NCBI GenBank assembly: GCA_001443025.1
Contig: LEKP01000003.1
Coordinates: 86,652-150,651 of the forward strand
Direction of reading: 5' to 3'
Origin: Parcubacteria bacterium GBS-2
Lineage (GTDB): Bacteria > Patescibacteriota > Minisyncoccia > Minisyncoccales > GBS-2
DNA: 64,000 nt
The translations under genes were made by a program, and so were the position numbers. This document shows, one piece after another, positions 14,871 through 46,970 of the stretch. Below the pieces are notes generated by a model that was given only the letters and a program-made list of their open reading frames with translations, was not told where the DNA came from and did not search any database. The first letter of the stretch is position 1. The number at the start of each line of letters is the position of its first letter.

Positions 14871-15908
14871 TTATTCTCTAGTTAAATGAATTTTACAATT
14901 TGGGCAAATCAAACTTGAGCAAGGAACTCCAGGTTGATGTTCAACTCTATAGCCACATTTTTTGCAAACACAATATCCCCCGGGTCCTCTGCCTCTAAAT
15001 CTCCTTCTCCAACAAAAACCTTTTTTGAAACCAAAAGCTACAAGAGGAGGTTTATAAAAACCAGTTTCAACTTCGTGGCTTTTAACTTGAATTGCAACAT
15101 AAACTAAGTTTTTAATTTCTTTCATTAATCTTTCTCTTAAATTTTCTGAAATTTTTGTTGCGGTCTCAACGTCCAAATTTCTTGGCAAATTTATTTCCAA
15201 ATTGGCAGTAAAAACAGAACCCTTCTTTTGAGTTTTTAAATCTGAAATTTCAATCCCTTGAGATTTTACAATCTCTTTTATTTTCTCTTCAACTTCAGGC
15301 GGGGCTGAAACATCAAGTAAAGAATCGATGGCTTCTTTTCCAATTGAAAAAGATTCTTTAACAATATAAAGACCGATTAAAAAAGCTAAAATTGAATCGG
15401 TAAAAATCCAATATTTATTCAAAACTAAACCAGCAAAAACTGCCAAGGATGCAAAAACATCAATTCTTGAATGAACTCCATCTGAAATTAAAGCAACCGA
15501 ATTTTCTTTTTTCCCAAAATGAATTTTTAATCTTGCCATTATTTCATTCAAAATTGCAGAAAATCCCATAACTGAAAGTGCCAAAATTGGAAGTTGAATC
15601 GCTGTTGGATTCTTAAATTTTTGGTATGCCTCAAAAATTATCCAAATTCCAGTAAAAAACAAAATTAAAGTAATCAAAAATCCTGCCAAAACCTCAAATT
15701 TAAAATGGCCATAAGGATGCTTTTTGTCAGCTGGCTTTTTTGAAATTTTAATCCCTAAAAATGAAATCAAAGAAGAAAAAATGTCTGCCAAGGAATGAAA
15801 ACCCTCGGCTAAAACAGCAGTTGATTTTGATAAAATCCCCGCAGAAATTTTTATTCCAGCCAAAATAACATTTGCCAATACCGAAATTTTCGCAATTTTT
15901 TCTTTCAT
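14871..15908 (-). CDS. Cation diffusion facilitator (CDF) transporter with an Arg/Gly linker and a C-terminal C4 zinc-ribbon tail
   Basis: HSLAD and HSRID (HxxxD) motifs in the TM helices. Tail reads RRRFRGRGPGGYCVCKKCGYRVEHQPGVPCSSLICPNCKIHL. Confidence 0.85.
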   Translation of the reverse strand: MKEKIAKISVLANVILAGIKISAGILSKSTAVLAEGFHSLADIFSSLISFLGIKISKKPADKKHPYGHFKFEVLAGFLITLILFFTGIWIIFEAYQKFKNPTAIQLPILALSVMGFSAILNEIMARLKIHFGKKENSVALISDGVHSRIDVFASLAVFAGLVLNKYWIFTDSILAFLIGLYIVKESFSIGKEAIDSLLDVSAPPEVEEKIKEIVKSQGIEISDLKTQKKGSVFTANLEINLPRNLDVETATKISENLRERLMKEIKNLVYVAIQVKSHEVETGFYKPPLVAFGFKKGFCWRRRFRGRGPGGYCVCKKCGYRVEHQPGVPCSSLICPNCKIHLTRE

Positions 15909-16834
15909 AAAATTTTTTCAATTATTTTCTCAAATTTTTTTTGAAGTTTGGGGTTTATTTTTGCTATTGGCTTCATTTTTAAAGTAGATTTTAAAAAATC
16001 CTTATGGTAGGGAATTTTCCCCAAAATTTCAATTTTATTTTCTTTGGCGAACTTTTCTATTTCTTTTGAAAAATTTTTTGCTAGATCGAATTTATTAATA
16101 ACAATTCCGTGTTGAATTTTAAAATGATTTGCTAAATATAAAACTCTTTTTAGGTCAAAAAGGGCAGAAGGTGTGGGTTCTGTCACTGCTATAATATAAT
16201 CTGTTCCGACTAAAGAAGCAATCACTGGACATCCAATTCCAGGGGCAGAATCTATAATCATAATTTCTGCTTTTATTCTCTCTCCAATTTCATCGGCTAC
16301 TTTTCTTACTTCATTCACTACTTCTCCAGAAGAAAGTTCTCCTAATTTCAGTTCGCTTGAAACCAAATCGACATTATAATTTTTTCCAACAAAAATTTTC
16401 CCAATTTCTTTTTTGCCTTCTTTTATTGCTCCGAAAGGACAAGCCAAAACGCAGGCTTTACAACCAATACAAGAATCTTTCAAGAAAGCGGGATATTTTC
16501 CTTTGACAAAAACGATGGCATTTTGCTTGCAAACTTTTGCGCACTCTCCGCATTTTTTGCATTTTTCAAAATCAAATTTAGGAATGAACTGAAAAACTTT
16601 TTTGAATTCTTTTCTTTTTATTGATAACAACAAATGGCAATTTGGACATTCTGCATCGGCATCAACCAAAATTGTCTTTTTGCTTTTCGCAAATTCCACT
16701 GCCAAAGAAGTTGCCACCATCGACTTTCCCACTCCCCCTTTCCCTCCATTAACTGCTATTTTCACCCCCACACCAAAATAGGCAACCTTGGTGTTATTTA
16801 ACGAAGTCAATTCTTGTTTGGTGTGGGGGTTCAT
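15905..16834 (-). CDS. MinD/ParA-type P-loop ATPase with an inserted 2x[4Fe-4S] ferredoxin domain
   Basis: Deviant Walker A GKGGVGKS. Cluster motifs CKKCGECAKVC and CIGCKACVLACP. Confidence 0.8.
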   Translation of the reverse strand: MNPHTKQELTSLNNTKVAYFGVGVKIAVNGGKGGVGKSMVATSLAVEFAKSKKTILVDADAECPNCHLLLSIKRKEFKKVFQFIPKFDFEKCKKCGECAKVCKQNAIVFVKGKYPAFLKDSCIGCKACVLACPFGAIKEGKKEIGKIFVGKNYNVDLVSSELKLGELSSGEVVNEVRKVADEIGERIKAEIMIIDSAPGIGCPVIASLVGTDYIIAVTEPTPSALFDLKRVLYLANHFKIQHGIVINKFDLAKNFSKEIEKFAKENKIEILGKIPYHKDFLKSTLKMKPIAKINPKLQKKFEKIIEKIL

Positions 16835-16837
16835 AAT

Positions 16838-17173
16838 TTAAAAAATATCTTCTTTTGATAATTCTTTTAATTTGTTTTCTTCAAATTTTTTAAGATTTTC
16901 TAAAATCGTGCCTTCAATTGCTTTAAAAACTTTAATTTTATAATTTTTAAATTTTTCAAAAGCCCTCGGTCCCAAACTGAAAACAATAACTACATCGACA
17001 TTTTGTCTTTTTAAAAAATCTGGCGGAAGTCCTTTCCCCTTGAGCTCTGGATTTTCGAAAACCTCAAAAATTTCTTTTTCAGTATCGAAAATCAAAAAAT
17101 TCTTTGCTCTTCCAAAATGCAAAGCCACCTTATCTTCTAAATTGTTTCCGTCAGTAGCGAATGCTATTTTCAT
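16838..17173 (-). CDS. NifB/NifX-like (dinitrogenase FeMo-cofactor binding fold) protein
   Basis: 111 aa. MKIAFATDGNNLEDKVALHFGRAKNFLIF... is the typical family N-terminus. Confidence 0.75.
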   Translation of the reverse strand: MKIAFATDGNNLEDKVALHFGRAKNFLIFDTEKEIFEVFENPELKGKGLPPDFLKRQNVDVVIVFSLGPRAFEKFKNYKIKVFKAIEGTILENLKKFEENKLKELSKEDIF

Positions 17174-17508
17174 TCGAATTTTTCCAATTTTCCTTGAATA
17201 AATTTCTCAATTATTTCTTTTACTTTCCCTTCTCCCTGATAAACCTCAATATTAAATTGTCTTAAAACATCGAAGGCCCTTGGTCCAATATTTTTTGTGA
17301 TTACTGCTTTCACATCCTTTTCGGCCATCAATTGAGCGGCGAAAATTCCTGCCCCTCCTGTTCTTTTTTCAGCTTCATTTTCAATTGCTTCAAAACTTTT
17401 AATCTTTCCGTTCTCAATCGCGACAATGAGAAAATAGGGACACCTGGCAAACACTTCGCTTACTGTGTCTTCTAAACTTTTTCCGTTTGCTGAAATTGCA
17501 ATTTTCAT
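17170..17508 (-). CDS. NifB/NifX-like protein, second paralog
   Basis: 112 aa. MKIAISANGKSLEDTVSEVFARCPYFLIV...GGAGIFAAQLMAEKDVKAVI. Confidence 0.75.
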   Translation of the reverse strand: MKIAISANGKSLEDTVSEVFARCPYFLIVAIENGKIKSFEAIENEAEKRTGGAGIFAAQLMAEKDVKAVITKNIGPRAFDVLRQFNIEVYQGEGKVKEIIEKFIQGKLEKFE

Positions 17509-17738
17509 TTTTTCTTTTCTAATTCTTTCAATCTTTTCTCAATTGCCTTCATTTCTTCCTTTAAAGCTTTAAGTTCATCCAAAAGCATTTCTTTTTCTTC
17601 TTCGGGAGTAATTTTCTCAAAATATTCAGGAAATGCCCACCAACCCCTCGGCAACCAAGGATATCGCCAGCATCTCCACCAGTATTTTCTAAATTCTGGA
17701 TAGGCCCACCAAGGACCTCCTCCCATTCCCCAGGGCAT
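17505..17738 (-). CDS. DUF5320-like small protein (Gly/Trp-rich N-terminus, coiled-coil C-terminus)
   Basis: MPWGMGGGPWW... then EEKEMLLDELKALKEEMKAIEKRLKELEKKK. First gene of the coupled operon. Confidence 0.55.
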   Translation of the reverse strand: MPWGMGGGPWWAYPEFRKYWWRCWRYPWLPRGWWAFPEYFEKITPEEEKEMLLDELKALKEEMKAIEKRLKELEKKK

Positions 17739-17854: not shown

Positions 17855-18784
17855 ATGCTCAAGATAAAAGGAGAGGTTCCCTTAAAAGATCATACAATTT
17901 TTAAAATCGGAGGGCCGGCTCGCTATTTTTTTGTTGCCCAAAATGAAAAAGATTTAAAAAATGCAATTTTGTGGGGAAAAAAGAAAAAAATTCCTTTTTT
18001 TGTTTTGGGTGGAGGAAGTAATGTTTTGTTTTCAGATGAGGGTTTTAGGGGGCTTGTAATAAAACTCCGCAATACGCAATACGAAATACGAAATACTAAA
18101 ATAACTGCTGAGGCGGGAGTTCCACTGCAAAAATTAGTTTTTGAAACAGCAAAAAAAGGACTCTCTGGGCTTGAAAATTTAGCAGGAATTCCAGGAACTT
18201 TGGGAGGTGCAATTTGGGGAAATGCTGGTGCTTTTGAAAGAGAAATTGGAGATTTAGTTGAAGAAGTTAAAATTTTAAAAATTGAAAATTGCAAATTGCA
18301 AATTGCAAAATTAAAGAAAAAAGATTGTAAATTTGGATACAGAGACAGTATTTTTAAAAAAAGAAAAAATTGGATAATTTTAGAAGCGACTTTGAAACTA
18401 AAAAAAGGAAAGAGGAAAGAAATTGAAAAAAAAATAAAAGAGATTTTGAAATTGAGAAAAGAAAAACAACCCCTTGAATTTCCTTGTGCAGGTTCTGTTT
18501 TTAAAAATGTGCTAATAGAAACAGTTCCCCGAAAAATCCAGGAAAAATTCAAAGAAAAAATAAAAAATGGATTTTTGCCAGCTGGTGTTTTAATTGAGGC
18601 TGCGGAATTAAAAGGCTATCAAATTGGTGGGGCAAAGATTTCAGAAAAACACGCAAATTTTATCGTAAACATTGGAAACGCAAAGGCAAACGATGTAATG
18701 CAGTTGATAGAAAAAATAAAAAAAGAGGTTAAGAAAAAATTTAGAGTTCAACTCGAAGAGGAAATTAAGTTAGTTGGTTTTTAG
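17855..18784 (+). CDS. murB: UDP-N-acetylenolpyruvoylglucosamine reductase
   Basis: 309 aa. FKIGGPARYF, FVLGGGSNVL, GIPGTLGGAIWGNAGA, FGYRDSIF, AGSVFKN. The only plus-strand gene in the window. Confidence 0.85.
   Translation: MLKIKGEVPLKDHTIFKIGGPARYFFVAQNEKDLKNAILWGKKKKIPFFVLGGGSNVLFSDEGFRGLVIKLRNTQYEIRNTKITAEAGVPLQKLVFETAKKGLSGLENLAGIPGTLGGAIWGNAGAFEREIGDLVEEVKILKIENCKLQIAKLKKKDCKFGYRDSIFKKRKNWIILEATLKLKKGKRKEIEKKIKEILKLRKEKQPLEFPCAGSVFKNVLIETVPRKIQEKFKEKIKNGFLPAGVLIEAAELKGYQIGGAKISEKHANFIVNIGNAKANDVMQLIEKIKKEVKKKFRVQLEEEIKLVGF
18068..18102 (+). repeat. Heptanucleotide tandem array A (5 units) inside murB
   Basis: CGCAATA CGCAATA CGAAATA CGAAATA CTAAAAT. Encodes RNTQYEIRNTK. Confidence 0.8.
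18277..18311 (+). repeat. Heptanucleotide tandem array C (5 units) inside murB
   Basis: AAAATTG AAAATTG CAAATTG CAAATTG CAAAATT. Encodes KIENCKLQIAKL. Confidence 0.8.
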
Positions 18785-22695: not shown

Positions 22696-23106
22696 TTATC
22701 TAATTTGAATTGTTTTTGCAGTGAGATATCCTTCAGTCGTTTGTTCTCCAGACACTAAAACTTGTTTTCCAATTTCAATGTCTTCAATATTTCCCTCTAC
22801 AGATTTTAGAATTTGAGTAGATTCTGCAACAAAAACTATTTTTGTGCTTCCGTCTGGCAATTTTATCGTTAAACTCTTTTCATCTTTTGATATAACCTGA
22901 CCTGATAAAAATCCTACTCCTTCTCTTTGCCTTTGAGGAATCTCTCCTCTTTGGAATGTTTGTCCTCTTTGTTGAAAAATTTCTCTCATTTTCTCTGGCG
23001 TCAAATTTTTCAATGCCTGCGATTGTCCGTATTTCATTCCACCAAAAAATCCTCCAGTTCCTACAACGATTAAGGCAATTAAAATCAAAATTAAATTTTT
23101 TTTCAT
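22696..23106 (-). CDS. Membrane-anchored/secreted small beta-rich protein (DUF5666-like)
   Basis: 136 aa. N-terminal TM segment, then ...LTIKLPDGSTKIVFVAESTQILK...IGKQVLVSGEQ... Confidence 0.5.
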   Translation of the reverse strand: MKKNLILILIALIVVGTGGFFGGMKYGQSQALKNLTPEKMREIFQQRGQTFQRGEIPQRQREGVGFLSGQVISKDEKSLTIKLPDGSTKIVFVAESTQILKSVEGNIEDIEIGKQVLVSGEQTTEGYLTAKTIQIR

Positions 23107-23158: not shown

Positions 23159-23186
23159 ATTTTGACCTTTGACTTTTGAGTTTTGA
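23159..23186 (-). repeat. Heptanucleotide tandem array B (4 units), intergenic
   Basis: Plus strand ATTTTGA CCTTTGA CTTTTGA GTTTTGA. Shares the 14-nt TTTTGAGTTTTGA(+1) core with the array inside eno. Confidence 0.75.
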
Positions 23187-23190
23187 GTTA

Positions 23191-24402
23191 TTATTCGTAT
23201 CTTAGGGCCTCTATTGGATTAAGTTTTGCTGCTTTTTGAGCTGGCCAATAACCAAAGAAAATTCCGATTGCAGTACAAACTGAAAAAGCCAAAAAAATGG
23301 AAAAAAGAGAAATTTGAGTTGGAATTTGGGCAAATTTTGAAACTCCTAAAGAAATTAACCAGCCCAAAAAAATTCCCACAATCCCACCAAAAACTGTCAA
23401 AAGAACTGATTCTGCCAAAATTTGAATTAAAATTTCTCTATTTTTTGCTCCGATTGCCTTTCTCAAACCAATTTCTCTTGTTCTTTCAGTGACTGAAGTT
23501 AGCATCATATTCATAATTCCAATTCCACCAACTACTAAAGAAATTCCAGCGATAGCTGCTAAAAAAATTGTCATTGTATTTGTAACTTGAGTTAAAGTAG
23601 ATAAAATATCCTCTTGGGAAATAATGGCAAAATCTGGATTTTGAGGATCGACTCGATGTTTTTCTGCTAAAAGTAAAGTTGCTTGCTGTTGAATTTGAGA
23701 TAACAATTCTTTTTTTTCACCTTTAATTAAAATCAAGTTTAAATATTCTGATTTTGCTAAAACTTTTTTCATTGTGGTAATTGGAACAAAAACCATGTCA
23801 TCTGCCACCATTCCCATCACCCCTCCTTTTGGCGCTGCTACTCCAATAACTTTAAAATTTATCCCAGAAATTCTCACTGTTTTTCCAATAGCTTCCTCTT
23901 CTCCAAAAAGATCGTTGGCAATATTTTTTCCCAAAACCGCTACTCTTGAATTGTTTCTCATTTGTTCTTCGTTAAAAGTTGAACCTGCTTCAATCGAAAT
24001 TTCTCTTACCGCAAAAATCTCAGGACTAGCTCCAATAATACTCGTTCTGGTGTTGTTTCCGTTTGGAGCTACAATTTGAAGGGTTCTTTGAATTATTGGA
24101 ACAACATCAACTACTCCTTCAATCGTTTTTAAAACATTAACATCTTCTTCTTTTAAAGTTTGAGCTGTTCCCCTACCCATGAAAACTGCTCCAATTCTAG
24201 TTCCCCCTGGCATTACTGTTAATACATTCGATCCCAAACCTTGAATGCTTTGAGTTATCTCAAATTTTGCTCCTTGACCAATAGATATCATCGCAATCAC
24301 AGAAGCAATTCCAATCACAATGCCCAAAATCGTCAGACCGGATCTGACTTTATTTGCTGATAATGCAAATATTGCTTCGTTTAGCACATCAATTAATTTC
24401 AT
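23191..24402 (-). CDS. ABC transporter permease, MacB/FtsX family
   Basis: 403 aa. N-terminal TM, large extracytoplasmic domain, C-terminal FtsX-type 3-TM bundle (ERTREIGLRKAIGA). Confidence 0.8.
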   Translation of the reverse strand: MKLIDVLNEAIFALSANKVRSGLTILGIVIGIASVIAMISIGQGAKFEITQSIQGLGSNVLTVMPGGTRIGAVFMGRGTAQTLKEEDVNVLKTIEGVVDVVPIIQRTLQIVAPNGNNTRTSIIGASPEIFAVREISIEAGSTFNEEQMRNNSRVAVLGKNIANDLFGEEEAIGKTVRISGINFKVIGVAAPKGGVMGMVADDMVFVPITTMKKVLAKSEYLNLILIKGEKKELLSQIQQQATLLLAEKHRVDPQNPDFAIISQEDILSTLTQVTNTMTIFLAAIAGISLVVGGIGIMNMMLTSVTERTREIGLRKAIGAKNREILIQILAESVLLTVFGGIVGIFLGWLISLGVSKFAQIPTQISLFSIFLAFSVCTAIGIFFGYWPAQKAAKLNPIEALRYE

Positions 24403-28759: not shown

Positions 28760-29650
28760 TTATTGTAGAACCTGAGAAAGACATTGATTGAATGAGTTCA
28801 CTTGAAAATTATATTGATCAATTAAATTTTTTGTTTCCTCAATTAGATTATTATATTTTAACACCAATTCATTGTATTGATCAATTTTTCGTAAAACTTC
28901 TTCTCTTTGCCATCTCCTTAATGTTCTGATTTCAGACCTCAAAATTGATAATTCTTTTTGAAGTTCTAAAATTTGCTTTTCATTTTCCTCGATTTTTTCT
29001 TTCAAAGATAAATCTGGCTTTTTACAAAAAGAAGAGGGCAAACCAAAATGTTGAACCGCAATCCAAACTTCCTTTCTTTCAAAAATTCCTTTTTTTACCG
29101 CAACTCCAATTTCTTGATATTTTTCATTCAAAATATTTTCTCTGTGACCTGGACTTTCCATCCAAGCCAAAACTAAATCTTCATCAGAAGAAAAATTTCC
29201 CATTGCTAAGTTTTCACCGATCAATAAAAAATCGTATCCGAATTTTTTTGCTAAATCTGAAACTCCTTCTCCAGAAGGTGAGTAATGAGAAAAATATTGA
29301 TTTTCAAACATATCTTCAACTTTCGCCAAAGCACTTTTGTTTAAAAGTTGATTTTCTTTTAAAGGCGCCAAGCCATACTTTTCTCTTTGTTTGTTTGTCC
29401 ATTCAATTATTCCTTCTTTGGTTAAAATTACTTCTGGCTTTTCTTCTCGAATAACTTTCAATGGAGGAGGGGAAATTTCTTTTTCTTCTTGGACAACTTC
29501 TGGAACTTTCGCCACTTCTTCAATTTTTTGAGGAAGGTTTTTAATTTCTGGAATTTGTAAAGTAAAAATTCCTCCTATTTTTGGCCAAAAATAAAAAATA
29601 AAAAAACCCAAAAGGGTTAAAAACAAAAGAGAAAATAAAAATTTCTTCAT
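28760..29650 (-). CDS. CAP/SCP (YkwD-like) domain protein with an N-terminal TM and a C-terminal coiled coil
   Basis: NQYFSHYSPSGEG..., AWMESPGHRENIL, EIGVAV. Confidence 0.75.
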   Translation of the reverse strand: MKKFLFSLLFLTLLGFFIFYFWPKIGGIFTLQIPEIKNLPQKIEEVAKVPEVVQEEKEISPPPLKVIREEKPEVILTKEGIIEWTNKQREKYGLAPLKENQLLNKSALAKVEDMFENQYFSHYSPSGEGVSDLAKKFGYDFLLIGENLAMGNFSSDEDLVLAWMESPGHRENILNEKYQEIGVAVKKGIFERKEVWIAVQHFGLPSSFCKKPDLSLKEKIEENEKQILELQKELSILRSEIRTLRRWQREEVLRKIDQYNELVLKYNNLIEETKNLIDQYNFQVNSFNQCLSQVLQ

Positions 29651-35455: not shown

Positions 35456-36165
35456 AAATATTTTCGGTATTTTATATTTGTGAACTCTTGACCTTCTTTA
35501 ACAATTTCCTCAACCTCTTTTTCTTTAAACGGAGTAAAAGTTTTTCTAGAAATCGTGCTGTTTTTTTGATAGTTTTGCAAATAATAAATTTTTGCTTCTT
35601 GAATTTCTTTGCAAATTTCTAAAATGTCTTCTTTTTTGTGAAATTCTTTCATTACTGTCGTTCTAAGTTCGTAATCGACTTTGCCCGAAAGTAAAATTTT
35701 AACAGATTTTTTAATGTTTTCAAACATTCTTTTTGTCAAAATTCCTCCAGTAATCTCTTTGTATTTTTTAAAATTGTCCAATCTGTGCTTAATATCCATT
35801 GCTACATAATCTACCAACTTTTTATCAATCAAATATTTTAACATTTTTGGGTTGGTTCCATTAGTTTCTAGCTCGACTAAATATCCCAACTTTTTTATTT
35901 TTTTTATAAAATCTGGAAGATCTTCATTAATCGTCGGTTCCCCTCCAGAAATTGCTACCGCTTCCAAAAAATTCTTTCTTTCTTTCAAAAAAGAAAAAAT
36001 TTCTCGCTGAGGAATTTCTTTTTGATTCTCAATTTTCTCTGGCAAAACTAAATGGGGTACATAACAGAAACAACAACGAAGATTGCACCCTCCTAAAAAA
36101 ACTACGGCAGAAATTCTGCCAGGATATTCAATCAGGCTTTGCTTTTGAAGTCCTAAAATTTTCAT
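35452..36165 (-). CDS. nrdG: Anaerobic ribonucleotide reductase activating radical-SAM protein
   Basis: CNLRCCFC (Cx3Cx2C), GGEPT. 4-nt overlap with nrdD. Confidence 0.85.
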   Translation of the reverse strand: MKILGLQKQSLIEYPGRISAVVFLGGCNLRCCFCYVPHLVLPEKIENQKEIPQREIFSFLKERKNFLEAVAISGGEPTINEDLPDFIKKIKKLGYLVELETNGTNPKMLKYLIDKKLVDYVAMDIKHRLDNFKKYKEITGGILTKRMFENIKKSVKILLSGKVDYELRTTVMKEFHKKEDILEICKEIQEAKIYYLQNYQKNSTISRKTFTPFKEKEVEEIVKEGQEFTNIKYRKYL

Positions 36166-38279
36166 TTCAAAACTGCTTCTTTAATTTTAAATTCCTTCCT
36201 TTGTTTGAATTCTTGTTGTTTCCCTAAATTCCATTGCTGGACCGGTCTGTAATAACCAACTATTCTTGAATAGACTTCGCAGGGTTGCTTTATTGTGCAT
36301 TTTGGGCAGAAAAAGTGTTCTCCTGGAATGTAACCATGGACAGGGCAAATTGAAAAAGTTGGAGTGACAGTAATGTAAGGAAGTTTGAAATTTTCAAAAA
36401 TTTTTCTAACGAGCCTTTTTACTCCCTCCTCGCTTTGCATCCTCTCTCCCAAAAAGATGTGAAGAATTGTTCCTCCTGTATATTTACACTGAATTTCGTC
36501 TTGGAGTTTTAGGGTCTCAAAGAGATCATCAGTATAATTTACTGGAAGTTGAGTTGAATTGGTGTAATAGGGAATTTTTTTGGTACCGGCTGTAATAATG
36601 TCTGGATATTTTTCTTTGTCTTTTAGGGCAAGGCGATAGGCAGTTGATTCTGCGGGTGTAGCCTCCAAATTATAAATATTCCCGGTTTCTTTTTGATATT
36701 TCACTAACCTTTCTCTCATAAAGTCTAAAACCTCCAAAGCAAACTTTCTCCCTCTCTTCGTTGCAATATTTTCTTCCATAAAGTTTAACAAGCATTCATT
36801 CATTCCAACAAGGCCAATAGTTGAAAAGTGATTTGCCCAGTATTTTCCTCTCATTTGTTTTATGTCTTGCAAATAATACCTTGAATAAGGATAAAGCCCT
36901 TTTTCGATGAAATTTTCCAAAACTTTTCTTTTAATTTCTAAACTTTCTTTTGCCAAATCCATAACTTTTGCCAATCTCTCGAAAAATTCTTTTTTTGTTT
37001 TCGACAAATAACCAATGCGTGGTAAATTAATCGTAACTACGCCAATTGAACCGGTTTTTGATCCTGCTCCAAAAAGTCCTCCACCACCTCGATTATAAAG
37101 TTCTGTAAGATCAAGACGAAGCCTACAACACATTGAACGAACATCTTCAGGTCTCATTTCAGAGTTAATATAGTTTGCAAAATAATTTGTTCCATACTTT
37201 GCTGAAGCTTCGAAAATTCCATTGAAGGCTGGTTCTTCCCAAGGAAAATCTTTTGTAATGTTGATTGTTGGAATTGGAAAGTGAAATGGTCTTCCTTTTG
37301 CATCACCTTCCATGTAAACTTCATAAAGTGCTTTATCAAAAATTTTCATTTCTTCCTCAAATTCAGAATAGGTTTTATCTTGTGGTTTTCCTCCGATAAT
37401 TACTGGTAATTTTGCGTAAACTGGAGAAGGTTTTAAATCTAAAGTGATATTTGAAAAAGGAGTTTGAAAACCTACTCTCGTTGGTATTGCCATATTAAAC
37501 AAAAATTCTTGCAAAGCCTGTTTTACTTGCTGATAGTTCAAATTGTCGTATCTGATAAAAGGCGCCAAAAGAGTATCAAAGTTTGAAAAAGAAACAGCCC
37601 CTGCACATTCACCCTGCAATGTATACAAAAAATTAACGCACTGCATCAAAGCAGTGTTGAAATGTTTTGGTGGTTTTGATTCTATTTTTCCTGGCACTCC
37701 TCCAAACCCCTTCATTAAAAGATCGTACAAATCCCACCCCATGCAGTAAGTGGATAAAGCATCCAAATTGTGGATGTGAAAGTCTCCAGATTCATGGGCT
37801 TCTCTAATTTCTGGAGGGTAAATTTTGTTTAGCCAATATTTCTTAACAATATAAGAGACTCCGTAATGATTCAAACCCTGCAAAGAAAAAGCCATGTTAG
37901 CGTTCTCTTGTACTTCCCAATCTAATTTTTCAATGTATTGGTCTAATCTGTCGACTGCCTCCTCTGAGACTTTAATCGCTTCTCTAATTCTTCTTCTTTG
38001 CTCTCTGTAGAGGATATAAGCTTTCGCCGCTTTTACCAATCCCTCTAAAATTAAAACTTCTTCAACGATGTCTTGGATTTGTTCTACATGAGGAATTTCG
38101 CCTTTTTTAAATCTTCTGTTTAAAATTTGGACAACTTTGTTAGAAAGCCTTTTTGCTTTCTTTCCATCTCCTTCTCCAGAAGCAGTTAAAGCTTTAAAAA
38201 TTGCTTCTGTAATTCTGTTTTGATCAAAAGAAACAATGGAGCCGTCTCTTTTTTGAACTTTTTCAATTTTATTTTTCAT
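36162..38279 (-). CDS. nrdD: Class III anaerobic ribonucleoside-triphosphate reductase
   Basis: N-terminal ATP-cone. C-terminal Zn site CPVHG...CPKC and glycyl-radical motif RIVGYYRPV. Confidence 0.9.
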   Translation of the reverse strand: MKNKIEKVQKRDGSIVSFDQNRITEAIFKALTASGEGDGKKAKRLSNKVVQILNRRFKKGEIPHVEQIQDIVEEVLILEGLVKAAKAYILYREQRRRIREAIKVSEEAVDRLDQYIEKLDWEVQENANMAFSLQGLNHYGVSYIVKKYWLNKIYPPEIREAHESGDFHIHNLDALSTYCMGWDLYDLLMKGFGGVPGKIESKPPKHFNTALMQCVNFLYTLQGECAGAVSFSNFDTLLAPFIRYDNLNYQQVKQALQEFLFNMAIPTRVGFQTPFSNITLDLKPSPVYAKLPVIIGGKPQDKTYSEFEEEMKIFDKALYEVYMEGDAKGRPFHFPIPTINITKDFPWEEPAFNGIFEASAKYGTNYFANYINSEMRPEDVRSMCCRLRLDLTELYNRGGGGLFGAGSKTGSIGVVTINLPRIGYLSKTKKEFFERLAKVMDLAKESLEIKRKVLENFIEKGLYPYSRYYLQDIKQMRGKYWANHFSTIGLVGMNECLLNFMEENIATKRGRKFALEVLDFMRERLVKYQKETGNIYNLEATPAESTAYRLALKDKEKYPDIITAGTKKIPYYTNSTQLPVNYTDDLFETLKLQDEIQCKYTGGTILHIFLGERMQSEEGVKRLVRKIFENFKLPYITVTPTFSICPVHGYIPGEHFFCPKCTIKQPCEVYSRIVGYYRPVQQWNLGKQQEFKQRKEFKIKEAVLK

Positions 38280-39490: not shown

Positions 39491-39524
39491 CACATTTGAT
39501 CAATTACGCAAATGTGCAAATATC
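39491..39524 (-). repeat. 34-nt palindromic intergenic element, copy 1 (eno stop to apgM start)
   Basis: Minus strand GATATTTGCACATTTGCGTAATTGATCAAATGTG. 32/34 identical to copy 2. Confidence 0.85.
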
Positions 39525-40788
39525 AAATTTTGGAACCTTGTAACTCTTCTTCGATTCTTAACAAACGATTATACTTTGCCACCCTTTCTCCTCTTGCTGG
39601 AGCTCCCGCTTTGATAAAATCTGCGCAAATCCCCACTGCAAAATCTGAAATGAAATCATCTGTTGTTTCCCCAGATCTATGAGAAACCATAATTTGCCAA
39701 CCAAAAGATTTTGCCAATTTTACTGCCTCGATTGCTTCGGTTACAGTACCAATTTGATTAATTTTGACGATGATCGCATTACACAGATTTTTTTCTTTCG
39801 CCATTTTTATTCTTTTTGGGTTAGTAACTATTAAATCATCACCAACGATTAAAACTTTTGACTTTTGCCTTTTGAGTTTTGAATTAAAATGACCCCAACT
39901 TTCAAAATCATCTTGAGCAAACGGATCTTCAATTCCTTCAATCGGATATTTTTTAACTAATTTGAAATAAAAATTAGCCAGTTCTTTTCCAGAAAATTTT
40001 CCAAATTTTGTTTTGTATTTTTTTCCATCAAAAAATTGAGAGGCAGCTACATCCAAAAAAATTGAAATTTTCTCTTGATAATTCAAGGTTTTAGCTGCCT
40101 CCAAAATTAATTTTATTGCAGTTTCTGGATCTTTAATTGGCGGTGCAAAACCTCCCTCATCTCCCAAATTGGTGGCTAATTTTCCGTATTTTTTTGAAAT
40201 AATCTCCTTTAATTTATGGTAAATTTCGACACCAAATCTCAAATTTTCAGAAAAACTTTTCTCTTTTGGACAAATCATGAATTCTTGAAAATCTAATTCG
40301 TTTCCAGCATGAACACCCCCGTTGATAATGTTAAAAGAAGGTCTGGGTATTACGTATTTCGTATTGCGTATGTCGTATAACGATCGGATGTATTTGTAAA
40401 GGGGAAGGTTTTTTGCCTTTGCTCCTGTCTTGCAAACTGCCAAAGAAACTGCACAAATTGCATTCGCTCCCAAATTTGATTTATTTTCTGTTCCATCCAA
40501 TTCAATTAAAACTTGATCAATTTCTTTTTGTTTTGTTACATTAAAGCCCTTTAATTTTTTTGAAATAATTTCGTTTACATTCTTTACTGCTTTTTTTACT
40601 CCTTTTCCAAAATATCTCTTTCCCCCATCCCTTAACTCCACTGCCTCGTATTTTCCTTTAGAAGCCCCTGAAGGAACTGAAGCCAAAAATTTTCCAAAAT
40701 CAGTTTCCAATTCCACCTCAATCGTTGGATTTCCCCTCGAATCTAAAATTTCCCTTGCTTTAATTTTTTTAATTTTTAAAGTTTTCAT
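39523..40788 (-). CDS. eno: Enolase
   Basis: MKTLKIKKIKAREILDSRGNPTIEVEL..., VGDDLIVTNP, SHRSGET. Start at 40788 is preferred over the ORF-track 40836. Confidence 0.9.
   Translation of the reverse strand: MKTLKIKKIKAREILDSRGNPTIEVELETDFGKFLASVPSGASKGKYEAVELRDGGKRYFGKGVKKAVKNVNEIISKKLKGFNVTKQKEIDQVLIELDGTENKSNLGANAICAVSLAVCKTGAKAKNLPLYKYIRSLYDIRNTKYVIPRPSFNIINGGVHAGNELDFQEFMICPKEKSFSENLRFGVEIYHKLKEIISKKYGKLATNLGDEGGFAPPIKDPETAIKLILEAAKTLNYQEKISIFLDVAASQFFDGKKYKTKFGKFSGKELANFYFKLVKKYPIEGIEDPFAQDDFESWGHFNSKLKRQKSKVLIVGDDLIVTNPKRIKMAKEKNLCNAIIVKINQIGTVTEAIEAVKLAKSFGWQIMVSHRSGETTDDFISDFAVGICADFIKAGAPARGERVAKYNRLLRIEEELQGSKI
39855..39882 (-). repeat. Heptanucleotide tandem array B (4 units) inside eno
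   Basis: Plus strand CTTTTGA CTTTTGC CTTTTGA GTTTTGA. Encodes KLKRQKSK on the minus strand. Confidence 0.8.
40347..40382 (-). repeat. Heptanucleotide tandem array A (about 5 units) inside eno
   Basis: Coding strand ATACGAC ATACGCA ATACGAA ATACGTA ATACC. 19 nt (ATACGCAATACGAAATACG) are identical to the murB array. Confidence 0.8.
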
Positions 40789-40816: not shown

Positions 40817-41377
40817 TTAATATTCAAATCCGCCAACTACCCATTCCATTTCGTTTTGCCAATTTCTATTGGGACAGCTCCAACCGGGACTTTGAGGATG
40901 GGGTCCGTTGCTTGTTTCCATATCTACAATACCTAAAACAAAGTATGCACCCCGAGAAGGATCACAACCGTAACTTCCTGCCGGGTAGCGATAATAGCGA
41001 TAAGTATACCCTCCGCAGGTTCCTGTACCAATTGGGTCTCTGGGGACACTACTCATTAAACCTTCGTCCACCAATGGTTCAATAAAGGGTTTTCCGTCTC
41101 CATCATTGTCTACAGTCGAAGTATCCCAACAGCCGCATCCCCCCTCACATTCTCCATAGGCTGAGGTTGGGCCTGGATACCTTTCATACTTATCATAATA
41201 TAACTGAAGAGCTGTTAAAATTTGCCTCATATCAGATAATCTTCTTGCGTCCCTGGTTTTGGCTCTTGCTCCTTTTAAACTCACCAAAACAATCGAAGAC
41301 AACATTCCAATTACCGCAATGGCAACTAAAAGTTCAATTAAGGTGAATGATTTTCCTTTTGTTTTTAATATTTCCAC
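40817..41377 (-). CDS. Type IV pilin/pseudopilin-like protein
   Basis: Prepilin N-terminus ...KGKSFTLIELLVAIAVIGMLSSIV. Cys-rich globular part with a DNDGDG motif. GTG start. Confidence 0.75.
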   Translation of the reverse strand: MEILKTKGKSFTLIELLVAIAVIGMLSSIVLVSLKGARAKTRDARRLSDMRQILTALQLYYDKYERYPGPTSAYGECEGGCGCWDTSTVDNDGDGKPFIEPLVDEGLMSSVPRDPIGTGTCGGYTYRYYRYPAGSYGCDPSRGAYFVLGIVDMETSNGPHPQSPGWSCPNRNWQNEMEWVVGGFEY

Positions 41378-46898: not shown

Positions 46899-46899
46899 G

Positions 46900-46970
46900 A
46901 GCCGCCCGTCGGACTTGCACCGACACCTATCGCTTACGAAGCGATTGCTCTTCTTTTGAGCTAGGGCGGC
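46900..46970 (-). tRNA. Non-canonical tRNA-Thr (anticodon CGU)
   Basis: GCCGCCC/GGGCGGC acceptor, anticodon arm ATCGC-TTCGTAA-GCGAT, T arm GTCGG-TGCAAGT-CCGAC. The D loop AAAAGAA lacks GG and the T loop has G at position 55. Confidence 0.55.

Follow-up and report, generated by a model that had tools for sequence, protein, structure and literature searches.

Heptanucleotide tandem arrays in murB, eno and other loci of a Parcubacteria lineage

The murB and eno genes of the uncultured, Nealsonbacteria-like Parcubacteria bacterium GBS-2, which encode UDP-N-acetylmuramate dehydrogenase and enolase, each contain two short tandem arrays of 7-nt units, and a fifth such array lies between genes in the same 64-kb stretch of contig LEKP01000003.1 (positions 86,652 to 150,651). 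This stretch, at its full length, is referred to below as the window; its GC content is 33%, and all coordinates are window positions unless a related locus (L followed by a number) is named. The arrays are probably heptanucleotide simple-sequence repeats (long SSRs) which were made and homogenised by strand slippage and then filtered by selection. A first-pass annotation, made from the sequence alone, had drawn attention to the murB arrays and to an array in eno, and what became of its claims is given with the results that bear on them.

Arrays were scored as self-matches at lag p in 28-nt scan windows, with thresholds of at least 21 or at least 22 of 28 and periods of 4 to 15, and the null expectation was taken from dinucleotide-preserving shuffles within 500-nt blocks. 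At the lower threshold period 7 gave five arrays against 0.26 in the shuffles, and none of the other periods gave more than one; at the higher threshold the corresponding values were four, 0.06 and zero. With a scan window of 21 nt, matches came from period 7 alone. The excess of arrays is real and specific to a unit length of 7, and chance low complexity is rejected by the block-wise shuffles and by the other periods, which serve as internal controls. The first-pass annotation had held that the arrays are not due to chance, a claim to be given up should period-7 arrays be no commoner than in shuffled sequence; with five arrays against 0.26 expected, the claim stands.

All five arrays were returned by Tandem Repeats Finder with a period of 7, 3.9–4.9 copies and 84–91% matches. 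The murB gene (17855–18784, + strand, 309 aa) is recognized from an identical public protein carrying Pfam domains PF01565 and PF02873, from the MurB annotation of its relatives and from matches to MurB entries in the PDB. Its first array (18068–18102, +) reads CGCAATA CGCAATA CGAAATA CGAAATA CTAAAAT, has 25 of 28 self-matches at lag 7 and encodes RNTQYEIRNTKI; the second (18278–18312, +) reads AAAATTG AAAATTG CAAATTG CAAATTG CAAAATT, has 26 of 28 and encodes KIENCKLQIAKL. For the first of these the earlier sequence and coordinates were exact, and for the second the sequence was correct and the position lay one base too far to the left. The eno gene (39523–40788, - strand, 421 aa from the ATG at 40788) is recognized from PF03952 and PF00113 and from identical 421-aa public proteins; in the list of open reading frames (ORFs) it begins upstream, at a TTG at 40836. 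On its sense strand array 1 (40348–40382, -) reads CGTTATA CGACATA CGCAATA CGAAATA CGTAATA (22 of 28; peptide SLYDIRNTKYVI) and array 2 (39854–39884, -) reads TCAAAAC TCAAAAG GCAAAAG TCAAAAG T (21 of 28; peptide NSKLKRQKSKV). The intergenic array (23160–23188, -), which on the + strand reads TTTTGAC CTTTGAC TTTTGAG TTTTGAG TT (23 of 28), lies directly 3' of the stop codon of a gene for a MacB/FtsX-type permease (23191–24402) and ~55 nt upstream of the start of the next gene at 23106. Loci L005 and L007 have arrays at a matching distance downstream of murB, and their orthology with the window's intergenic array is by position only. The annotation was thus right in reporting an array in eno and incomplete in that the second eno array and the intergenic array had gone unnoticed.

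The MurB and enolase proteins occur unchanged in public assemblies. Relatives which bear names are metagenome-assembled genomes of Candidatus Nealsonbacteria, Parcubacteria or Patescibacteria, some of them tagged "Saccharibacteria" by an automated pipeline, and together the relatives form a dense gradient of identity. A scan of their loci, which counted arrays with at least 22 of 28 self-matches, covered 855 kb of related Patescibacteria sequence and found 79 arrays of period 7, 68 of them distinct. No other period exceeded 20, and the 20 arrays of the next-highest period are the period-14 harmonic. By comparison, the loci from outside the candidate phyla radiation (CPR) which came from the same search had two period-7 arrays in 810 kb, and their low-GC subset (26–42% GC, 309 kb) had none. 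Period-7 arrays are a lineage-wide trait among the loci sampled; they are not peculiar to murB and eno and amount to a heptanucleotide repeat habit of the lineage, of a kind known from other bacteria (PMC4692102, PMC4679880). The units in the relatives are diverse and mainly A-rich on the sense strand. A hand tally outside murB and eno gave ~20 arrays in ORFs and ~14 between genes, so that intergenic DNA is over-represented against a non-coding share of 13%. Other host genes in the relatives specify triosephosphate isomerase (TIM), MnmA, PheS, a YggS-like protein and SecD. The size of the arrays (32–39 nt) was considered as a sign of fixed size and rejected, being largely an effect of the detection threshold.

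Some arrays of the relatives deserve individual description. Their TIM gene has two array slots (L018 4334–4368 and 4465–4503; L028 7574–7611), the second of which is filled by GCTAAAA-type units in L018 and by AAGTGTC x4 in L028, a pattern like that of murB and eno. Arrays tend to pair within single genes (murB, eno, TIM). Inverted pairs, in which a period-7 array is followed by its approximate reverse complement, were seen inside pheS (L030 897–976) and between genes (L090 20781–20873). The longest array, AATGAGT/GATGAGT in ~8 copies, is intergenic (L063 6526–6584), and the most perfect, ATCGACT in five perfect copies, is inside the gene for the YggS-like protein (L037 7556–7606).

A codon alignment of 27 orthologous murB loci shows period-7 arrays in both slots in most relatives down to ~50% protein identity, with units that differ; orthologues below ~50% identity are of equal length and are without periodicity. 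At site 1 the window, L001–L007 and L012 have CGNAATA; L008, L010, L011 and L014 have ATTCAAA in ~7 copies, a variant longer by 12 nt; L013 has four perfect copies of ATGCAAA; L015 and L017 have ATACTAA/CTAAATA, L019 ATTGAAA and L024 NNNAATT. Site 2 is occupied by AAAATTG/CAAATTG in the window, L001, L005 and L007, by GTTGGAT GTTGGAA GTTCGAA GTTAGAG in L002, L004, L006 and L008–L010, by TTGGAAG/CTCAAAG in L012 and L014, and by five copies of AAAGGTT in L011. The annotation had proposed to abandon its view if orthologues had the same residues without repeat structure; the relatives carry period-7 arrays in the same slots. It had also placed both murB arrays in segments variable among MurB proteins, which for site 1 holds at the broad scale only; within the clade QNTQYEIRNT is well conserved.

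The PDB MurB structure 4pyt aligns across both array regions with gaps of only 2–3 residues. Since distant orthologues are equal in length and 4pyt aligns through, the murB arrays are ordinary hairpin residues and not insertions, and the repeat-inserting process invoked earlier is ruled out for this gene, where there is no net change in length. In the AlphaFold model of MurB (predicted local distance difference test, pLDDT, 88.5) array 1 forms a loop and a β-hairpin (76–79/82–86) and array 2 a β-hairpin (135–144/147–154). The gene is a recombination mosaic among related genomes, as is seen when the window is compared with L003, L005 and L007. Between L003 and the window residues 197–309 are identical, codons 2–30 are 33–42% divergent and the region around residues 132–146, where the two have different site-2 alleles, is 42–49% divergent; between L007 and the window parts of the gene are 20–40% divergent and the surroundings of site 2 are 2–4% divergent.

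In eno the site 1 array is limited to the closest relatives (83–88% protein identity), and L051, at 74% identity, has the same length there without a repeat. The window and L132 have NNNATAC x5, L133 has ACNTACA-type units, L131 has four perfect units of GACTTAC, and L130 and L050 have eight units, i.e. 21 nt or seven residues more; the +7-aa allele is also found in the enolase proteins P0139, P0142 and P0145. The copy number at this site thus differs between relatives by whole units (five versus eight). The unit goes with the conserved Leu-Tyr codons beside the array, CTT TAC accompanying GACTTAC in L131 and TTA/CTA TAC accompanying NNNATAC, which points to local seeding. At site 2 the slot does not change in length among the relatives of 83–88% identity, which have TCAAAAN, TCTAACN, CTTCCNN or AACTTAC. 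Parcubacteria further removed have AACTACA x4 (L064), GCAAATT GCAAATT GAAAATT GAAAATT (L057), TTCAAAG (L056) or AATTTCT (L053) at this site, and orthologues without the site-2 array are three residues shorter there. The AlphaFold model of enolase (pLDDT 87.6) places array 1 at the end of helix 130–138 and in the surface loop 139–148, and array 2 at the end of helix 295–307, in a loop and at the start of strand 313–316; in enolase, too, the arrays take up normal positions and are not insertions. Between genomes with different array alleles the divergence of site 2 is 28–56%, as against 12–17% for the rest of the gene; that of site 1 has a broader spread, 12–52%. In pairs with different alleles the array slots are usually 2–4 times as divergent as the remainder of eno.

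The periodicity is a property of the DNA and not of the protein. Each array peptide was back-translated 20,000 times with the codon usage of the window, and the observed period-7 score was reached in none of the resamples for murB array 1 (p<5e-5), in 264 for murB array 2 (p=0.013), in 8 for eno array 1 (p=4e-4) and in 41 for eno array 2 (p=0.002). The codon sets of murB site 1 and eno site 1 are ~3 standard deviations rarer than typical, and rare codons are used where the unit demands them, among them, with genome-wide codon shares, ACG (11% of Thr), CGC and CGA (3% and 6% of Arg), CTC (3% of Leu) and ATA (19% of Ile). It is because synonymous resampling so rarely reaches the observed scores, and because rare codons are used, that we place the periodicity at the level of the DNA. 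As a separate observation, a gene for tRNA-Thr with anticodon CGT, which reads ACG, lies at 46899–46970 (-); ATACG-type arrays need the rare ACG.

Units within an array resemble one another more closely than they resemble their positional orthologues. The mean number of mismatches per unit, a statistic which ignores phylogeny, is 1.37 within arrays and 3.40 between positional orthologues at eno site 2, 1.12 and 2.22 at murB site 1, and 1.77 and 2.60 at murB site 2; concerted evolution follows from this difference. The turnover leaves recognizable signatures, for instance A replaced by T in all units of eno site 1 of L131 and A replaced by G at the equivalent position of all units of murB site 2. 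No change by a single unit inside a gene was seen among the alleles compared. With unit turnover, concerted evolution and +21-nt alleles among the orthologues, the annotation's suggestion of a repeat-generating process is upheld at the level of the DNA.

Strand misalignment during replication or repair would produce these arrays, in a Parcubacteria lineage prone to 7-nt tandem repeats. From a seed of two or three units, whole-unit misalignment would keep copying units onto their neighbours until a homogenised array results. Inside genes, selection would retain the reading frame, with the length either constant or altered by three units (21 nt, 7 codons), would admit only units lacking a stop codon in all three frames (~45% of heptamers, weighted by composition), and would require that the peptide, which is periodic over seven residues because a 7-nt repeat is read through all three frames, fall in a tolerant surface hairpin or loop. 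A short strand plus a two-residue turn comes to ~7 residues, which may account for tolerance in hairpins. In this way an array would long keep its fixed slot in an essential enzyme even as its unit sequence drifts and is homogenised anew. The molecular event would be slippage or conversion; the unit length of 7 may correspond to the stretch of DNA that the polymerase active site accommodates, as proposed in the literature, and arrays at different loci may occasionally exchange sequence.

Several observations weigh against this account. Homogenisation at constant length needs conversion-type events or paired +21/-21 events, and neither was directly observed. Slippage alone leaves unexplained the exclusivity of period 7, the pairing of arrays within genes (murB, eno, TIM) and the unit variants common to different loci. 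Three assemblies of the same species are identical in their enolase array peptides, so that ongoing slippage is not demonstrated and the "active" process of the annotation is not borne out in a present-day sense; it is on the strength of this identity that the turnover is placed between species and not between strains. Lastly, some arrays are more conserved than their host gene, the window and L007 having 2 differences in 48 nt at murB site 2 and 19.5% divergence elsewhere. Such arrays look more conserved because array alleles also pass between lineages by homologous recombination; the low divergence fits the mosaicism of murB, and selection on the DNA sequence could also produce it.

A different explanation is that arrays are copied between loci, either by ectopic gene conversion or template switching with the arrays as homology or by a dedicated templated mechanism, so that existing arrays are overwritten and new ones seeded from other arrays. 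This is compatible with slippage, and we consider it unlikely. The annotation had reported a 19-nt identity between murB array 1 and eno array 1, and the match is exact (ATACGCAATACGAAATACG, 18072–18090 on the + strand and 40353–40371 on the - strand; 0 in 100 shuffles). It had added that both encode IRNTK, which is true of both genes and not a consequence of the shared 19 nt, since the frames differ: the segment reads TQYEIR in murB and IRNTKY in eno, and the IRNTK of murB comes from the next units. The sharing extends to relatives. In L130 the eno array has 29 nt (CGCAATACGCAATACGAAATACGAAATAC) in common with murB array 1 of the window, and these contain the AABB order CGCAATA CGCAATA CGAAATA CGAAATA; murB site 1 and the mnmA array of L009, ~4.5 kb apart, share 20 nt; and the AACNTAC family (AACTTAC, AACTAAC, AACCTAC) fills eno site 1 in L133 and recurs in L050 at eno site 2. 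Within the window, CTCAAAA/GTCAAAA (CAAAAGN) units are common to the intergenic array and array 2 of eno. At least 14 nt are shared by 6 of 46 same-locus pairs of different sites versus 38 of 1352 different-locus pairs. For two independent stop-free units the null value is 0.0014 for the same unit and 0.019 for at most one mismatch, and among the ten array pairs of the window two sharing pairs were seen where ~0.2 are expected; the sharing between murB and eno is real and goes beyond what independent arrays would give. It hints that arrays exchange sequence or that each genome prefers certain units, and proves neither, given how small the space of allowed units is and that the loci are relatives of one another. 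Convergence is plausible for units that are A-rich and stop-free in three frames; the compared loci are phylogenetically non-independent; the tracking of the flanking Leu-Tyr codons by eno site 1 argues for a local origin; and the "chimeric" array of L009 can also be derived by homogenising units present in its relatives. No reverse transcriptase or template was seen, and none was searched for. It is rather doubtful that the clade has a lineage-specific mechanism beyond generic slippage, whether a property of a replication or repair enzyme or templated copying, which would create 7-nt arrays, keep their phase and move unit variants between genes, the candidate moves being murB to eno, murB to mnmA, and eno site 1 to eno site 2. 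If such a mechanism did exist, it would in effect be a built-in device for rewriting the surface hairpins and loops of otherwise conserved housekeeping proteins.

A function of the 7-nt phasing in its own right is improbable. The arrays would then be a binding platform for a factor of low sequence specificity which reads DNA or RNA in a 7-nt register, such as cold-shock-type proteins of the oligonucleotide/oligosaccharide-binding (OB) fold, one per heptamer, or ribbon-helix-helix (RHH) proteins of the omega-repressor type polymerising on heptads, and selection would maintain the periodicity. Such a platform is favoured by arrays that stay at orthologous positions across deep divergence as their units change, by the retention in L005 and L007 of an intergenic array between the genes that flank it in the window, by arrays more conserved than their gene, and by the cold-shock-protein role raised for TAACTGA heptamer repeats (PMC4679880). 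Set against these points are the location of four of the five window arrays inside genes, where protein structure determines their positions; units which differ between arrays and so fit no single sequence-specific binder; the lack of significant secondary structure (z -1.6 to +0.5) and of an Rfam family; array-free orthologues which are functional enzymes; and the scatter of the arrays outside murB and eno over many unrelated housekeeping genes. That selection favours hairpins of 7-residue repeats in the protein, with the nucleotide periodicity a by-product of AT-biased codon usage, is very improbable. The peptides are indeed periodic over seven residues and lie in hairpins or loops, and a strand plus a two-residue turn of about that length would suit β-hairpins; yet a 7-residue repeat requires a 21-nt and not a 7-nt periodicity, synonymous resampling almost never attains what is observed, rare codons are used, arrays occur in intergenic DNA too, and low-GC non-CPR genomes have no such arrays. 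An AT-rich genome from a metagenome assembly might be expected to yield chance low complexity or assembly artefacts, an explanation of negligible probability in view of the shuffles and the other periods, of the same arrays in independent assemblies from NCBI, JGI and ENA, and of orthologous positions conserved across dozens of metagenomes. Protein-level selection and artefact are effectively excluded.

Slippage followed by selective filtering agrees with what is known of heptanucleotide long SSRs, the most abundant class of long SSR in many bacteria, for which an origin in slippage linked to the polymerase footprint has been suggested (Mrazek et al. 2007, as cited in PMC4692102 and PMC4679880). 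The five window arrays consist of head-to-tail 7-nt units in at least 3–4 copies with high identity, their excess over composition is specific to unit length, copy number differs by whole units between relatives at eno site 1, and the arrays evolve in concert by a statistic that takes no account of phylogeny. As far as the 2007 survey by Mrazek, Guo and Shah is represented in those later papers, the prokaryotic repeats resemble the present ones in their tandem 7-nt units with a period-7-specific excess, their patchiness across lineages, their proposed origin by slippage and their few copies, four units being the mode in Xanthomonas. In the same account repeats inside genes tend to have units which are multiples of three, and heptamers are mostly intergenic, whereas here many lie in essential genes, have constant length or change by three units, and persist at orthologous codons across the clade. 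No report of heptanucleotide repeats in Patescibacteria or the CPR was found in the literature searched, and a 2025 cross-kingdom survey of short tandem repeats (PMC12699852) mentions neither heptamers nor Patescibacteria.

Single-motif heptamer families include the cyanobacterial short tandemly repeated repetitive (STRR) sequences, GGGAATC of Xanthomonas and GGGGA(T/C)T of Nostoc (PMC4692102), and TAACTGA of marine Beggiatoaceae (PMC4679880). Like the present arrays they are tandem arrays (2–26 units) scattered over a genome, and at a given intergenic site related species differ in array sequence and length. Each has one dominant genome-wide motif and is mainly intergenic, and the G-rich ones are proposed to form G-quadruplexes, whereas here there are dozens of A-rich units without G-quadruplex potential, mostly in coding sequence. 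The tetranucleotide and heptanucleotide SSRs of Haemophilus contingency loci also change copy number by slippage and may lie in reading frames (PMC2651432, PMC8262952); they differ from strain to strain and toggle the frame or promoter strength of genes for surface and virulence functions. The arrays described here are not phase-variable loci of this type, for the genes here are essential and cytoplasmic, every allele examined is open through both array slots, only in-frame states occur, and the three same-species assemblies are identical; the hosts are MurB, enolase, TIM, MnmA, PheS and SecD, and phase-variable loci typically lie in surface or host-interaction genes. In AT-rich genomes such as that of Plasmodium, cryptic simplicity and low-complexity insertions are mostly trinucleotide-based and variable in length. 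Those insertions resemble the present arrays as slippage-derived simple sequence which, in an AT-rich genome, conserved enzymes tolerate in their surface loops; they differ in that the unit here is 7 nt, slots take the place of insertions and length is nearly fixed.

Other element classes were rejected. Against a diversity-generating retroelement, array sequence recurs in the window only in other arrays, there is no template/variable pair, and variable unit positions show C, G and T states while invariant A's persist. An omega/RHH heptad operator does not agree with the different unit families (CGNAATA, CAAATTG, CAAAAGN) nor with four of five arrays being intragenic. A structured RNA or DNA element is contradicted by fold z-scores of -1.58 to +0.49 relative to shuffled controls, and an Rfam search of the window returned three tRNAs only, with no family at the arrays.

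The over-representation of heptanucleotides in bacteria and the single-motif families were already known (PMC4692102, PMC4679880). New here are the Parcubacteria/CPR lineage, the diversity of the units, essential enzyme genes as hosts, the sharing of units between loci, and slots fixed at orthologous positions, in which units turn over in concert and length changes in steps of three units. The heptanucleotide excess, on record since 2007, has gone unexplained, and most descriptions of it concern intergenic DNA. This clade can serve as a natural experiment, with the same repeat process taking place inside essential genes, where the frame permits only 3-unit steps or conversion; for this reason the arrays stay in fixed slots that can be aligned across genomes, and unit turnover, conversion tracts and exchange between arrays become measurable from public metagenomes. 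The clade could also help to test the idea of the polymerase footprint. Slippage of a known kind, it seems likely, remodels surface loops of housekeeping enzymes. Since the array segments evolve 2–4 times faster in most comparisons of different alleles, and in a correlated way, they can mislead alignments, trees and selection scans made with housekeeping genes of the CPR.

The surroundings of the array-bearing genes also furnished some observations. The ORF list has 59 entries of 120 aa or more, and on the + strand murB is the sole real long one; the + strand ORF at 28945–29454 and the - strand ORF at 17923–18552, inside murB, are apparent antisense shadows, and the - strand carries all the remaining ORFs. 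Should genes here be oriented with replication, murB would be the one gene of the window in a head-on position. Upstream of it, on the opposite strand, is a compact cluster (15905–17738, -) which specifies a 77-aa Trp-rich DUF5320 protein (17505–17738), two proteins of ~111 aa (16838–17508) and a 309-aa protein (15905–16834) with P-loop and Cys-rich ferredoxin-like motifs, the last three read from their translations only. Immediately upstream of eno is a type IV pilin-like gene (40817–41377, -) with an N-terminal methylation motif (PF07963) and a C-terminal half rich in Cys, Gly and Tyr; its 3' end overlaps the TTG-extended eno ORF. The anaerobic ribonucleotide reductase NrdD of the window (36162–38279, -, 704 aa) is without an intein, and its orthologues in L131 (6496–9260) and L133 (12497–16276) are 1259–1288 aa long with Intein_splicing and LAGLIDADG matches.

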